Virus record (IMG/VR): IMGVR_UViG_2667528074_000009
Source of the DNA: a virus
Taxonomy: Duplodnaviria > Heunggongvirae > Uroviricota > Caudoviricetes
Length of the DNA stretch: 16,788 nucleotides
Reading direction: 5' to 3' (one strand)
The translations under genes and the position numbers were made by a program. The notes beneath the pieces were generated by a model. That model did not search any database and had not been told where the DNA came from. It was given only the letters and a program-made list of their open reading frames with translations. Positions 3,993 to 15,501 of this stretch are shown one piece after another (within the stretch, counting starts at the first letter, position 1; each line of letters opens with the position of its first letter).

Positions 3993-4148
3993 TTACTCCT
4001 CAGGTTCGTAAGCTGTGAAGACAGCGACCTCCGTCTGGCCGGTTCGGATTCGTACCTCGCAGAGGTCTTTCCTCGTTACCAGTGCCGTCACTATGACGGT
4101 TAAACAGATGACGATCAGGGCGATTAACATCGCCTTTTGCTGCTTCAT
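3993..4148 (-). CDS. hokD: Hok/Gef-family type I toxin (HokD/RelF-like), 51 aa
   Basis: Translation MKQQKAMLIALIVICLTVIVTALVTRKDLCEVRIRTGQTEVAVFTAYEPEE matches the HokD/RelF sequence as I recall it. GGAG RBS upstream of ATG 4148; stop TAA 3995..3993. Missing from the ORF track because it is under 60 aa. Confidence 0.9.
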   Translation of the reverse strand: MKQQKAMLIALIVICLTVIVTALVTRKDLCEVRIRTGQTEVAVFTAYEPEE

Positions 4149-4206
4149 AGCCTGCTTCTCCTTGACCTTTCGGTCCGTAAGAGGCTAACCTATGTTTGTG
4201 TGGCAT
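4000..4206 (-). CDS. mok: mok-like overlapping reading frame (68 codons)
   Basis: A 68-codon ORF starts upstream of hok and overlaps it almost entirely in another frame, the arrangement of mok in hok/mok/sok loci. Coding status inferred from position only. Confidence 0.45.
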   Translation of the reverse strand: MPHKHRLASYGPKGQGEAGYEAAKGDVNRPDRHLFNRHSDGTGNEERPLRGTNPNRPDGGRCLHSLRT

Positions 4207-4260
4207 AGATTGGGCCTCAGATTAATGTTAAGCGTCCTGCAAGACGCGTAATGTTAACTG
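4185..4260 (+). ncRNA. sok: Possible Sok-like antisense RNA (approximate, unverified)
   Basis: In hok/mok/sok loci Sok is antisense to the mok translation-initiation region, which here is around 4200. A TTGACC -35-like hexamer lies at 4162-4167 and an imperfect hairpin at 4233-4248. Boundaries are guesses. Confidence 0.2.
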
Positions 4261-4486
4261 GGGCTTTTCTCTGTCTGCCTTACAGTGGCATGCCCGAGGC
4301 AGACAGCCTCAAGCACCCGCAGCAATCTTACCGACACCGATAAGAAAACGCTATTTTTTATTGCCAGCACCATCTATCCAGGCTAATTTATCTGCGTCAG
4401 AACGGCGCAATGCGCTCGCCTGAGATACGTTTACTTGTCATTGGTAACAACAGATAACGGCAATTGTTGTTTCTGTTTTGTTTCCT

Positions 4487-10884: not shown

Positions 10885-11078
10885 CCTATAGGTATTCTCT
10901 CTTTCATGCCAACCCACCCCGCCCCACAGAACGCAGGGCAATACTTCGAGTTACCAGGCAGTGGTCAGGGGGTAAGTAGCCAGCCCGAGGCGTATGAACA
11001 TGACGGCAGGGTTCAACTTTAACTATTGCAGCAGGTTTTTGTTCCGCTACCCCGGCGTTAAGGGGAAATGAGGTCAAC

Positions 11079-11234
11079 ATGGATACTATCGATCTTGGCA
11101 ACAACGAATCTCTGGTGTACGGCGTGTTTCCCAACCAGGACGGCACGTTCACCGCTATGACGTATACCAAAAGCAAAACGTTTAAAACCGAATCTGGCGC
11201 GCGTCGCTGGCTGGAAAGAAACTCAGGTGAGTGA
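11079..11234 (+). CDS. ydfA: YdfA-like small protein (51 aa)
   Basis: MDTIDLGNNESLVYGVFPNQDGTFTAMTYTKSKTFKTESGARRWLERNSGE; GAGG RBS 6 nt upstream; length and sequence match Qin YdfA as recalled. Not in the ORF track (under 60 aa). Confidence 0.7.
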   Translation: MDTIDLGNNESLVYGVFPNQDGTFTAMTYTKSKTFKTESGARRWLERNSGE

Positions 11235-12016: not shown

Positions 12017-12333
12017 CCTCCTGAGGGTTGTTAATTAAGGAGTTCTCCACGGGTCAGGTGGAGTGCGTGCGCCGGACACGGGTGAGCATCCGGCACTGAC
12101 AGTTTACTGAAAGGATATATCCCTGAAAAGTCAGGGCATAACGCGAAAGCGCACGGCGAAGTTCGTCTCACTGTACGGTGTCGTTAAATTTAATTCGACC
12201 GTGCGCTTCCGGTTGTGGCACTCCGCGAAATGGCGCGGCGGTAAGTATGGCGGGGTTTCTCCGTTCCTCGCAAATGCCCACCGGGTTGTCAGGTTGACCA
12301 TACGCTTAAGTGACAACCCCGCTGCAACAACCC

Positions 12334-12390
12334 ATGTTGATTACCTTTTGGCGGCATCAGTTTCATTGCTGGCTGATGTCCGCCCTTTTT
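12334..12390 (+). ncRNA. dicF: DicF-like small regulatory RNA
   Basis: Lies 185 nt upstream of dicB. Conserved GGCGGCATCAGTTT core and terminator hairpin GGCGGCATCAG/CTGATGtCCGCC followed by TTTTT; downstream sequence AAAGTGAATTTTGTGATG...GGTGAATGCGGCT.AGCGCACGCG matches the K-12 dicF-dicB spacer as recalled. The 5' end is approximate. Confidence 0.55.
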
Positions 12391-12575
12391 AAAGTGAATT
12401 TTGTGATGCGGTGAATGCGGCTCAGCGCACGCGGAACAGTTAAAAAAGTGATCGGTACTCCGTATTTGTTTTATGGAGTTGGTTTCCCTGTATTCCGGCG
12501 TTAATTGTTAACTGGTTAACGTCACCTGGAGGCACCAGGCACCGCATCACAAAATTCATTGTTGAGGACGCGATA

Positions 12576-12764
12576 ATGGAAACGTTATTACCAAACGTTA
12601 ATACGTCTGAAGGTTGTTTTGAAATTGGTGTCAGAATCAGTAACCCTGTATTTACTGAAGATGCCATTAATAAGAGAAAACACGAACGGGAGCTATTAAA
12701 TCAAATATGCATTGTTTCAATGCTGGCCCGTTTACGCCTGATGCAAAAAGGATACTGGCAATGA
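12576..12764 (+). CDS. dicB: Cell-division inhibitor DicB (62 aa)
   Basis: METLLPNVNTSEGCFEIGVRISNPVFTEDAINKRKHERELLNQICIVSMLARLRLMQKGYWQ is near-identical to E. coli DicB as recalled; same length (62 aa). Confidence 0.9.
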   Translation: METLLPNVNTSEGCFEIGVRISNPVFTEDAINKRKHERELLNQICIVSMLARLRLMQKGYWQ

Positions 12765-12964
12765 ATACTGCTGTTGCTCTCACTCTGACAGTTTTTCTTA
12801 ATACGGGCGAGCCTGTTGACCTGGTTATTGACATTTACGGTTCAATGAAAGAATGCATGGCTGCCGCAGCGGAACAGAAAATTCCCGGTAACTGTTATCC
12901 GGTCGATAAAGTTATTCACCAGGATAATAACGAAATCCCGGCAGGACTTAAAACAGCGCCGTAA
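12761..12964 (+). CDS. ydfD: YdfD-like protein (67 aa)
   Basis: ATG overlaps the dicB stop (ATGA at 12761-12764). MNTAVALTLTVFLNTGEPVDL... has a hydrophobic N-terminus. Position matches ydfD, which follows dicB in Qin. Confidence 0.6.
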   Translation: MNTAVALTLTVFLNTGEPVDLVIDIYGSMKECMAAAAEQKIPGNCYPVDKVIHQDNNEIPAGLKTAP

Positions 12965-13041: not shown

Positions 13042-15501
13042 ATGCGCACTGATAAAGAAGAATTTGCATTATATTGTGAAGCAAAAAATGACAAAGTCAG
13101 AAAACGCCTTGGAATTAAAGGTGGTTTTTACTGGACTACAGCAAAAAAATTATCTGTTGCCATCTCCCGCTGCATTACCGCAATGGATGACAACGATTAT
13201 GATGAAGACGACTTTAAAAAACCCGTCCGCGTCCATTTACCCGTTGTGAATGACCTTCCACCTGAAGGCGTGTTTGATACTGAATTCTGTAACCGTTACG
13301 AAAAAGGCGGGGAAGATGGCATCACAATGGTATTTATCGCGCCCTCACCCTCTGCGCAGGACAAACCAGCCAACACTGACAATACCAACGTCAACGGCGA
13401 AGACATGACTGAGATTGAGGAGAACATGCTCCTGCCGGTTTCAGGTCAGATTCTGCCTGTTCGATGGCTGGCACAGCACGGCAGCAAAAAACCGATCACA
13501 CACGTTTCGCGGGACGAACTGCGCGCATTACATAACGCACAGGATGAAAAACTTCCCGCCGTTACCGCGCTGGCTATCTCAAATAAAGCAGCGCAACTCG
13601 AACCGCTGGAGATTCGCGATCTCCACAAACTGGTGCGAGACACTGACAAAGTTTTCCCCGCCCCCGTAAATTCGGACCTGGGACTGATAACCTCTTTTAT
13701 CGAAGCATACCTGGACGCCGACTACACCGATCGCGGTCTGCTGACAAAAGAGTGGATGAAAGGAAATCGTGTTTCGCGTATCACCCGTACGGCTTCCGGT
13801 GCAAATGCCGGTGGCGGGAACAAAACCGATCGCAATCCGAATTTAGTACACACCTTCGATACGCTGGATGTGGAGATTGCAGCAGCCACACTTCCGATGG
13901 ATTTTAATATTTATGAAATTCCGGGCAGCGTTTATCGTCGCGCAAAAGACATCGTCCTGAAAAGAGAAAGTCCGTTCAAAGAATGGTCCGCAGCACTTCG
14001 CGCAACCCCGGGTATTCTTGACTATTCCCGCGCCGCTATTTTTGCACTTATCCGGAGCGCCCACCCTGAGTTTTATCACTACCCGGGACGCCTTCAGGGG
14101 TATATCAACGCCCACTTAACGGAGACTGATCACGAGAACCCCAGCAAGGAAACTCTCGCTGCTGCACGACATACACCGGAAAAGGATATCCTGGAAGAAG
14201 TTAACCGCGAACTGGCTGCTGAACGCGAAACAGAAGAAGAAAAAAATAATGAGGAAAAATCACAACCGTCTGACGCAATGGCAGATGAACAGGCAACGAC
14301 TACTGAAGCAATGGGACAGGATACAACTGAACATCGCCAGGACACACAATCGCTGGATACTCAGGCACAGATAAATCCGGTTAATCAGGTAAAAGTTACC
14401 GCTGTCGAAGTAAACAAAATTATGCAGGCAGCCAATATCAACCAGCCTGATGCCGACAAAATACTGGCAGTCCATCGCGGTGAGTTCGTTGACGGAATTA
14501 GCGACCCGAATGATCCGAAATGGGTTAAGGGGATTGAAACCCGCGATTCTGTGAACCAGAACCAGCCCGAATCGGAACAAAACGACCAGAAAGCGGAACA
14601 AAACAGCCCAAATGCGTTACAAAACGAGCCAGAAACGAAACAGCCTGAACCAGAAGAGCAACAAGAACCGGAAAAAGTCTGCACCGCCTGCGGTCAGACC
14701 GGCAGCGGCAACTGTCCTGACTGTGGCGCGGTGATGGGCAACGCAACATACCAGGAAACATTCGATGAAAAAAATCAGGCTGAAGTTCAGGAAGATGATC
14801 CGGAGGAAATGGAAGGCGCTGAACATCCGAACAATGAGAATGCTGGTAACGATCAGCATCACACCAGCGATAGTGAAACTGGCGAGGCGGCAGATCCCTT
14901 AATTGCGGTGAACGGTCATCACGTTATCACATCCACCAGCAGAGTGTGGATTCACCTGTCGGTCGACCTTGAAACGATGGGAACAAATCCTGATGCGCCA
15001 ATCAACTCTATTGGCGGTAAATTTTTTGATCCGGCAACCGGAGAGATGGGGCCTGAATTCAGTAAAGCTATCGATCTGGAAACCTCCGGCGGAATCATCG
15101 ACCGTAAAACAATAAAGTGGTGGGCGAAACGATCACGCGAAGCACAATCCGCTATTTTTACCGATGAAATCTCGTTAGATGTTGCTCTCCGGCTATTCAT
15201 AGAATTTATCGAAAAAAACTCCGGCGGGTGTTTTGTCCAGGTATGGGGAAATGGAGCCAACTTCGACAACGTAATTTTACGCCGTTCATATGAACGGCAG
15301 GGGATCCCCTGCCCATGGCTTTACTACAACGATCGCGATGTACGCACAATCGTTGAACTGGGTAATGCCATTGGCTTTGATGTCAGAATGGCTATTCCAT
15401 TCGAAGGCGTACCCCACAATGCGCTGGACGATGCCCGTCACCAGGCAAAACAAGTTTCAGCAATCTGGCAAAGACTGATCCCGCGTCAGGCTGATTTTTA
15501 A
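13042..15501 (+). CDS. Large early-left-operon protein (819 aa) with C-terminal DEDDh-type 3'-5' exonuclease domain, acidic low-complexity linker and CxxC-N9-CxxC zinc ribbon
   Basis: C-terminal motifs VDLETMG (Exo I), WGNGANFDNVIL (Exo II) and HNALDDARHQA (Exo III); central region about aa 380-620 is rich in E/D/Q/N/T; CTACGQTGSGNCPDCG around aa 545-560; GAGG RBS 8 nt upstream. Occupies the slot of ydfE (truncated in K-12 Qin). Confidence 0.75.
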   Translation: MRTDKEEFALYCEAKNDKVRKRLGIKGGFYWTTAKKLSVAISRCITAMDDNDYDEDDFKKPVRVHLPVVNDLPPEGVFDTEFCNRYEKGGEDGITMVFIAPSPSAQDKPANTDNTNVNGEDMTEIEENMLLPVSGQILPVRWLAQHGSKKPITHVSRDELRALHNAQDEKLPAVTALAISNKAAQLEPLEIRDLHKLVRDTDKVFPAPVNSDLGLITSFIEAYLDADYTDRGLLTKEWMKGNRVSRITRTASGANAGGGNKTDRNPNLVHTFDTLDVEIAAATLPMDFNIYEIPGSVYRRAKDIVLKRESPFKEWSAALRATPGILDYSRAAIFALIRSAHPEFYHYPGRLQGYINAHLTETDHENPSKETLAAARHTPEKDILEEVNRELAAERETEEEKNNEEKSQPSDAMADEQATTTEAMGQDTTEHRQDTQSLDTQAQINPVNQVKVTAVEVNKIMQAANINQPDADKILAVHRGEFVDGISDPNDPKWVKGIETRDSVNQNQPESEQNDQKAEQNSPNALQNEPETKQPEPEEQQEPEKVCTACGQTGSGNCPDCGAVMGNATYQETFDEKNQAEVQEDDPEEMEGAEHPNNENAGNDQHHTSDSETGEAADPLIAVNGHHVITSTSRVWIHLSVDLETMGTNPDAPINSIGGKFFDPATGEMGPEFSKAIDLETSGGIIDRKTIKWWAKRSREAQSAIFTDEISLDVALRLFIEFIEKNSGGCFVQVWGNGANFDNVILRRSYERQGIPCPWLYYNDRDVRTIVELGNAIGFDVRMAIPFEGVPHNALDDARHQAKQVSAIWQRLIPRQADF

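Follow-up and report, generated by a model that had tools for sequence, protein, structure and literature searches.

A putative diverged allele of the dicF slot in a lambdoid prophage dicBF operon and its relation to the small RNAs DicF and KilS

DicF, which E. coli K-12 carries in its Qin prophage as b1574, is the textbook prophage small RNA (sRNA), by which a cryptic phage controls the division and metabolism of its host. Its 3' region pairs with the ribosome-binding sites (RBS) of ftsZ and pykA, its 5' end pairs with codons 4-7 of xylR, and its regulation is Hfq-dependent (PMC5069750). Mutations in the ftsZ-pairing region (DicF9 and DicF23) abolish the control of ftsZ, the 5' end of DicF is generated by RNase E, and the 3' end is formed either by termination (53 nt) or by an RNase III cut about 19 nt further on (72 nt) (PMC5069750). 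The 2016 survey of DicF restricted its count to copies with an identity of more than 99% to that of K-12 (PMC5069750). A second prophage sRNA, KilS, came to light in Hfq RIL-seq data, in chimeras with yncL, and was verified by northern blot (Bar et al. 2021; PMC8175672), and the paper naming it does not mention DicF (PMC8175672). Setting aside work from 1994 on dicF-like prophage sequences, the literature searched contains neither a description of natural DicF seed variants nor a link between KilS and DicF. That work, by Faubladier and Bouché, reportedly described prophage sequences homologous to dicF, one of them in Rac, and may have anticipated part of the picture of slot alleles presented here.

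The window, that is the whole stretch of DNA analyzed here, comprises 16,788 nt of a virus assigned to the Caudoviricetes (IMG/VR record IMGVR_UViG_2667528074_000009). Its gene order in the region of interest matches that of K-12 Qin (ydfA-ydfB-ydfC-dicF-dicB-ydfD) and is shared with phage Tritos, in which dicF is annotated. Pfam matches of the neighboring genes, together with the alignment with Qin and Tritos, place the putative sRNA element (Table 1) within a dicBF operon, which is the location of DicF. The ydfD-like gene is listed with an upstream start, and its true start is probably near position 12761 by the K-12 layout. The flanks of the element are 94% to 100% identical to K-12 (88% in the adjoining leader block), and the ydfC-dicB spacer is a mosaic in which the sRNA body is one of four variable patches; another of these, at 12158-12198, is enclosed by the two arms of an inverted repeat that is itself conserved. 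Judged from its sequence and setting, the element represents one allele of the slot that holds dicF in the early-left (dicBF) operon of a lambdoid prophage and belongs to a wider DicF/KilS group of sRNAs. An open reading frame across it (12201-12392, 63 aa) was rejected as a coding alternative; allele indels of 2, 10, 1, and 1 nt fall inside this frame, and K-12 annotates no gene there. Elsewhere, the window encodes an 819-aa exonuclease (13042-15501, plus strand) with an N-terminal Exonuc_VIII (RecE-like) region and a C-terminal Rv2179c-like 3'-5' exoribonuclease domain, as well as a hok/sok-type toxin-antitoxin locus on the minus strand (3993-4318), with a sok RNA (RF01794, 109 bits) at 4146-4318 and a 51-aa hok-like ORF at 3993-4148.

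Table 1. Positions of the sRNA element, its parts and neighbors in the window, block identities to K-12, and related loci elsewhere
Feature	Position	Strand	Evidence or remark
sRNA element	12335-12390	+	Between ydfA/ydfC-like genes and dicB; slot is that of dicF in E. coli K-12 Qin
5' arm, variable; candidate seed 1	12329-12349	+	U-rich tract CCUUUU directly before hairpin; 35% identity to K-12, 10 nt shorter in window
Terminator hairpin; candidate seed 2	12350-12384	+	Fold, terminator scan, stem identity with Rac KilS; 76% identity to K-12, mostly in stem/stem base
Hairpin base, GGCGG and CCGCC	12350-12354 and 12380-12384	+	
Upper stem, CAUCAGUU pairing with GGCUGAUG	12355-12362 and 12371-12378	+	
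Hairpin loop UCAUUGCU	12363-12370	+	Allele-specific
Bulge in hairpin (U)	12379	+	
C + U5 tail	12385-12390	+	Terminator tail, presumed Hfq-binding 3' end; invariant across alleles
Upstream stem-loop	12283-12319 (9-bp perfect stem 12283-12291/12311-12319)	+	Inverted repeat, also in MFE fold
19-bp perfect long-range duplex, left arm	12395-12413	+	Inverted repeat, 100% complementary; candidate RNase III site, 53+19 nt form
19-bp duplex, right arm	12540-12558	+	Just upstream of dicB ribosome-binding site; ends ~18 nt before dicB start codon
Structured leader between sRNA and dicB	12397-12553	+	STnc100 (RF02076) 33.7 bits, model 21-154/206
ydfA-like gene (DUF1391), upstream in dicBF-type operon	11079-11234	+	Pfam DUF1391, E = 9e-29
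dicB (cell-division inhibitor)	12576-12764	+	Pfam DicB, E = 1.5e-38, full length
ydfD-like gene (DUF1482), listed ORF	12707-12964	+	Pfam DUF1482, E = 4e-20, ORF residues 24-79
Spacer block	12095-12157		94% identity to K-12
Spacer block	12158-12198		57% identity to K-12
Spacer block	12199-12257		97% identity to K-12
Spacer block	12258-12279		36% identity to K-12
Spacer block containing 9-bp stem	12280-12328		100% identity to K-12
Leader block	12385-12456		88% identity to K-12
Block	12457-12500		48% identity to K-12
Block	12501-12600		92% identity to K-12
KilS	L272 7406-7503 = NC_000913.3 1418405-1418502	-	K-12 Rac prophage
STnc100 leader matches elsewhere	L003 2933-3142, L169 5778-5964, L009, L039, L109, L118		Downstream gene dicB or kilR

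The element reads AUGUUGAUUACCUUUU-GGCGGCAUCAGUU-UCAUUGCU-GGCUGAUG-U-CCGCC-C-UUUUU. Its hairpin folds with a minimum free energy of -21.0 kcal/mol (z = -4.5; not one of 200 shuffled sequences was as stable), and the terminator scan found no other terminator-like site on the plus strand of the ydfC-dicB spacer. The short-RNA terminator of DicF, a GGCGG/CCGCC base followed by a U tail, is present. The first-pass annotation of this DNA had described a retained terminator and core with a 5' leader and loop that differ from K-12, and the alignment bears this out: the core GGCGGCATCAGTTT is one base apart from GGCGGTATCAGTTT of K-12, TTTCATTGCTGG stands in place of TTTTACTCCGTGACTGC in the loop, and the arm is diverged and shortened (Table 1). 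The window element resembles DicF in the slot between ydfC and dicB, the terminator base, the U tail, the U-rich tract, and the leader with its long-range duplex. In contrast, it lacks the anti-Shine-Dalgarno motif ACUCCG, the CUGCUCUG segment, and the GGUGACGUUU seed, and its upper stem and loop are replaced.

The annotation missed both the identity of the element's stem with that of Rac KilS and its wider setting, a mosaic slot with many alleles of which the element is one. KilS has the same hairpin stem (GGCGGCAUCAG...CUGAUGUCCGCC) and U tail, and the identity extends over the stem as GGCGGCATCAG...CTGATGTCCGCCC together with the downstream leader TTTTTAAAGTGAATTTTGTGATGCGGTGAATGCGG. The two differ in the loop (UUUCAUUGCUGG versus UUUUUUUCUUGAAGUUCGG in the comparison with the window element), and the KilS 5' arm and upstream region are unrelated to those of the window and lack the 9-bp stem. 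Further, KilS lies in the 5' UTR of kilR, with kilR downstream, whereas the window element precedes dicB, and KilS is 98 nt long and may have its own promoter.

To place the element among its relatives, IMG/VR was scanned with the conserved flanks, the stem, and the leader, and the matches were tabulated. Upstream of one leader, TTTTTAAAGTGAATTTTGTGATGCGGTGAATGCG, there are 43 distinct hairpins, mosaics included. Their main classes comprise canonical DicF; the window type, GGCGGCATCAGTTTCATTGCTGGCTGATGTCCGCC, and its micro-variants; the window stem with loop TGTTTGCCCATGAA and the canonical 5' arm; GGCGGGTATCC...GATACCCGCC, seen on the 5' arm of the window; a minimal hairpin, GGCGGAAACGGATATCCGCC; and GGCGGCATCAGTTTTTTTCTTGAAGTTCGGCTGATGTCCGCC, which is exactly the K-12 Rac sRNA KilS (b4833). 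Common to the slot alleles are the GGCGG/CCGCC terminator, the U-tract, and the conserved leader with its 19-bp duplex, while 5' arms and loops vary. The window hairpin is identical in 34 IMG/VR contigs and is joined to at least five different 5' arms; a pattern anchored on the stem, with the loop unconstrained, recovered 36 contigs that have the identical loop on several different 5' arms. Conversely, the 5' arm of the window is joined to another hairpin in two loci (L069/L109), and one locus (L275 4689-4728, minus strand) is a triple mosaic of a KilS-type arm, a DicF-type stem (GGCGGTATCAG...CTGCTCTACCGCC), and a U-rich loop of a third class. Two window-type hairpins (L142 9343-9408 and L164 5269-5329, both plus strand) directly overlap a short ORF (MQKREPVIIAPDYTDDELYEWILAASVSLLADVR...) at its 3' end, in loci without the Qin-type spacer, and the sequences point to a recombination joint at the hairpin. 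On comparison of these loci, DicF, KilS, and the window element are alleles of one slot whose arms and hairpins recombine independently. At a further locus with a window-type hairpin (L039 4732-4920, minus strand), isrK (59.6 bits) and a C4 antisense RNA (76.7 bits) take the place of dicB behind the slot and leader.

Among 5426 complete E. coli genomes, the 57-nt allele of the window is present in 92 (1.7%), with 43 records at 99% identity or more, and the canonical 53-nt DicF in 3947. E. coli SE11 is one carrier of the window allele (NC_011415.1 1781395-1781475). A count of 241 genomes for the window allele was discarded as inflated, the 81-nt query having a 31-nt word in common with KilS-type loci. 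Likewise, missing annotation beneath a match was dropped as a sign of an overlooked allele, given that RefSeq/PGAP omits canonical DicF too. Among species representatives, the slot with Qin-type flanks occurs only in Escherichia and Shigella. An Escherichia-type dicF slot with exact flanks is also found in metagenomic bins labeled Veillonella parvula and Collinsella (L134 and L135), most likely through bin contamination. The best coverage of the window by any complete E. coli genome is at most 65%, at about 89% identity; its prophage is a mosaic that is not present whole in this genome collection.

The 9-bp perfect stem upstream of the element had been proposed as a processing signal. The stem is real and fully conserved in K-12, but it differs from the documented processing site of DicF. 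Where this Qin-type stem lies, Rac/KilS-type loci have unrelated, shorter sequence and still yield an sRNA, indicating that the stem is dispensable for sRNA production from the slot. The best candidate for RNase III is instead the 19-bp duplex (12395-12413/12540-12558): the position 19 nt beyond the U tract falls within its left arm, which fits the published end point of the 72-nt form of DicF. In the alignment with K-12, the region around the RNase E site of DicF is not conserved in the window element. The same 19-bp duplex forms the outer stem of an alignment of the leader with STnc100, whose gathering score of 47 bits is above the score of the window leader. This sub-threshold match recurs in every locus tested (31 to 36 bits; Qin, Rac, and other alleles). 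The leader matches the core of the STnc100 model including the outer stem, but it lies downstream of the sRNA and is not the sRNA itself, and STnc100, listed as a candidate sRNA of Salmonella, probably represents the homologous leader in a prophage of that genus and not an sRNA gene in its own right.

The conserved scaffold of the element combines a U-rich tract with a GC-rich terminator stem and a U tail, the usual module for Hfq binding. The reading that we favor, with a probability of roughly 0.6, is that the window element is an Hfq-type sRNA released from the dicBF transcript by termination or processing, with the scaffold kept and the seeds replaced, so that it would not act as an antisense RNA to ftsZ. 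Starting at the operon promoter, transcription would reach the hairpin and its U5 tail, and termination there would set the 3' end of a short transcript of roughly 50 to 60 nt. RNase E would presumably generate the 5' end, within AU-rich single-stranded sequence around 12339-12343. Alternatively, transcription would read through into dicB, and cleavage of the 19-bp duplex by RNase III would yield a form about 19 nt longer. The parts of DicF that carry its seeds are exchanged, namely the 5' arm (xylR) and the loop with the 3' side of the stem (ftsZ, pykA, and manX). Since both are replaced, an expressed, processed, and Hfq-bound RNA from this slot would act in trans on targets different from those of DicF.

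The main competing explanation is that the hairpin is a plain terminator or attenuator and a processing landmark that sets transcription into dicB, giving a short RNA without trans targets whose arm and loop vary neutrally through phage mosaicism. What stays constant across the alleles (GGCGG/CCGCC, pairing in the upper stem, and the U tract) is indeed what a terminator requires, and the hairpin of the E allele is minimal, with 6 bp and an 8-nt loop; yet the Hfq-module features are retained, and both DicF and KilS, two alleles of the slot, have been established by experiment as sRNAs associated with Hfq (PMC5069750, PMC8175672). Three further variable patches lie between conserved blocks of the spacer, at least one of them between the arms of an inverted repeat, so divergence alone is no proof of selection on the seeds, and it is these patches that keep the terminator explanation alive. 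Neutral variation sits less easily with the persistence of one loop in 36 contigs despite several 5' arms, and between the B and C alleles, which have a common stem, the loop alone differs, in a manner that looks like replacement and not drift. The pairing tests (ftsZ, xylR, pykA, and manX, and the run scan of ftsA-ftsZ) yielded no target for the window allele, as this explanation would have it. On balance we consider a mere terminator less likely than an Hfq-type sRNA.

Target pairing was modeled with windowed duplexes and the opening cost of both RNAs. Unrestricted RNAduplex on 160-nt targets was set aside in favor of this model, as it produced long, loop-filled duplexes without discrimination. 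In the windowed model, canonical DicF pairs with ftsZ at -29..-7 (-7.1 kcal/mol), with xylR at +11..+20 (-12.4 kcal/mol), with pykA at the RBS, -19..+1 (-11.7 kcal/mol), and with manX at +34..+53 (-14.0 kcal/mol), a coding-region site that we take to be the published one, versus +6.3, +0.3, +2.9, and +5.0 kcal/mol, respectively, for the window allele. For canonical DicF the model thereby recovers the reported ftsZ, xylR, and pykA sites (PMC5069750). An allele with the canonical arm and a different loop keeps only the xylR pairing, as the modular picture predicts. By the same model the window allele has lost its complementarity to all four validated targets: the ftsZ-RBS pairing of DicF, the xylR seed GGUGACGUUU, and the pykA/manX pairing of the 3' region are missing. 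The earlier suggestion of altered targets is supported in part, by the predicted loss of pairing to ftsZ, pykA, manX, and xylR, and the energies for the three leaders that it had named for target prediction (ftsZ, xylR, and pykA) are all positive (+0.3 to +6.3 kcal/mol). The hairpin of the window is also more stable than that of DicF (-21.0 versus -15.9 kcal/mol) and its loop is smaller, which makes loop-based pairing less accessible in this allele and counts against the reading that we favor.

These results bear on the possibility that the element is a still functional DicF, repressing ftsZ through a pairing geometry that the energy model misses. The element is encoded in the same operon and adjoins dicB, which also blocks division, and CCGCCC, which takes part in canonical pairing with ftsZ, is kept in its stem on the 3' side. 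However, ACUCCG and the CUGCUCUG segment are missing, in the region where the DicF9 and DicF23 mutations abolish ftsZ control (PMC5069750), and the best ftsZ energy is unfavorable where canonical DicF, scored alike, is favorable. No Watson-Crick run of 9 nt or longer was found between the arm or loop of the window allele and 801 nt of ftsA-ftsZ. We therefore regard a functional DicF as quite improbable; as far as the pairing model goes, the window allele probably does not silence ftsZ as textbook DicF does.

At gathering thresholds, an Rfam search of the whole window reported only the sok RNA, and DicF was absent. A permissive search of 12150-12600 (451 bases) matched DicF (RF00039) at 12335-12385 on the plus strand over the full model (1-52/52), with 34.1 bits and an E-value of 8.4e-6, or about 3e-4 when scaled to the whole window. 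The covariance check proposed in the first-pass annotation is thus split, with a significant E-value and a score below the gathering cut-off of 48 bits. In a similar covariance search, canonical K-12 DicF scores 76.7 bits, and the KilS-type locus, at 39.1 bits, is also below the cut-off. Since KilS is nonetheless expressed and Hfq-associated, sub-threshold alleles of the slot can be made as sRNA. A chance resemblance of an unrelated GC-rich terminator, to which the sub-threshold score might point, is effectively refuted by the exact synteny with 94% to 100% identical flanks on both sides, and the full-length model match and the graded intermediate alleles that connect the element to DicF and KilS also oppose it. 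By gene order, flank identity, and the RF00039 match, the element is a positional homologue of dicF, and its initial identification as a DicF homologue with a diverged body was correct.

A bolder proposal, which we put forward tentatively and at less than even odds, is that the dicF slot is a modular seed cassette with a fixed scaffold and freely recombining arms and loops, that its RNAs form one hypervariable family, and that the window allele is functional with targets of its own, none of them ftsZ. The scaffold would extend from the U-rich tract through the GGCGG/CCGCC terminator and U tail to the leader processed by RNase III, and regulators directed at host or phage would differ from one prophage lineage to the next, much as immunity specificities do. 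For KilS and yncL (L314), the best pairing predicted joins nucleotides 34-47 of KilS to the yncL 3' UTR at +106..+119 (hybridization -18.2, total -5.6 kcal/mol); it runs through the variable 5' arm, which fits a view of this arm as a seed. For the 5' arm of the window, a weak candidate target is the start region of the ydfA-like gene. Nine nucleotides at 11074-11082 (UCAACAUGG, with the ATG at 11079) are perfectly complementary to CCAUGUUGA in the 5' arm region, and an A/G variant at this site is associated with the arm type across loci (Fisher p = 3e-5), an association that can be linkage. There are 14 loci of the window's arm type without a nearby ydfA, and the bases complementary to the ydfA-like start also close a local hairpin with 12325-12329, perhaps removed on processing.

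The Rfam cut-off for DicF picks up the canonical allele only. Should the diverged alleles prove active, E. coli would be under more varied post-transcriptional control from its prophages than assumed, this control would differ among strains that all have dicBF, and the presence of dicBF would not imply repression of ftsZ. As alleles of one slot, DicF and KilS also provide natural seed swaps on a constant scaffold, which could be used to study the evolution of sRNA target specificity.
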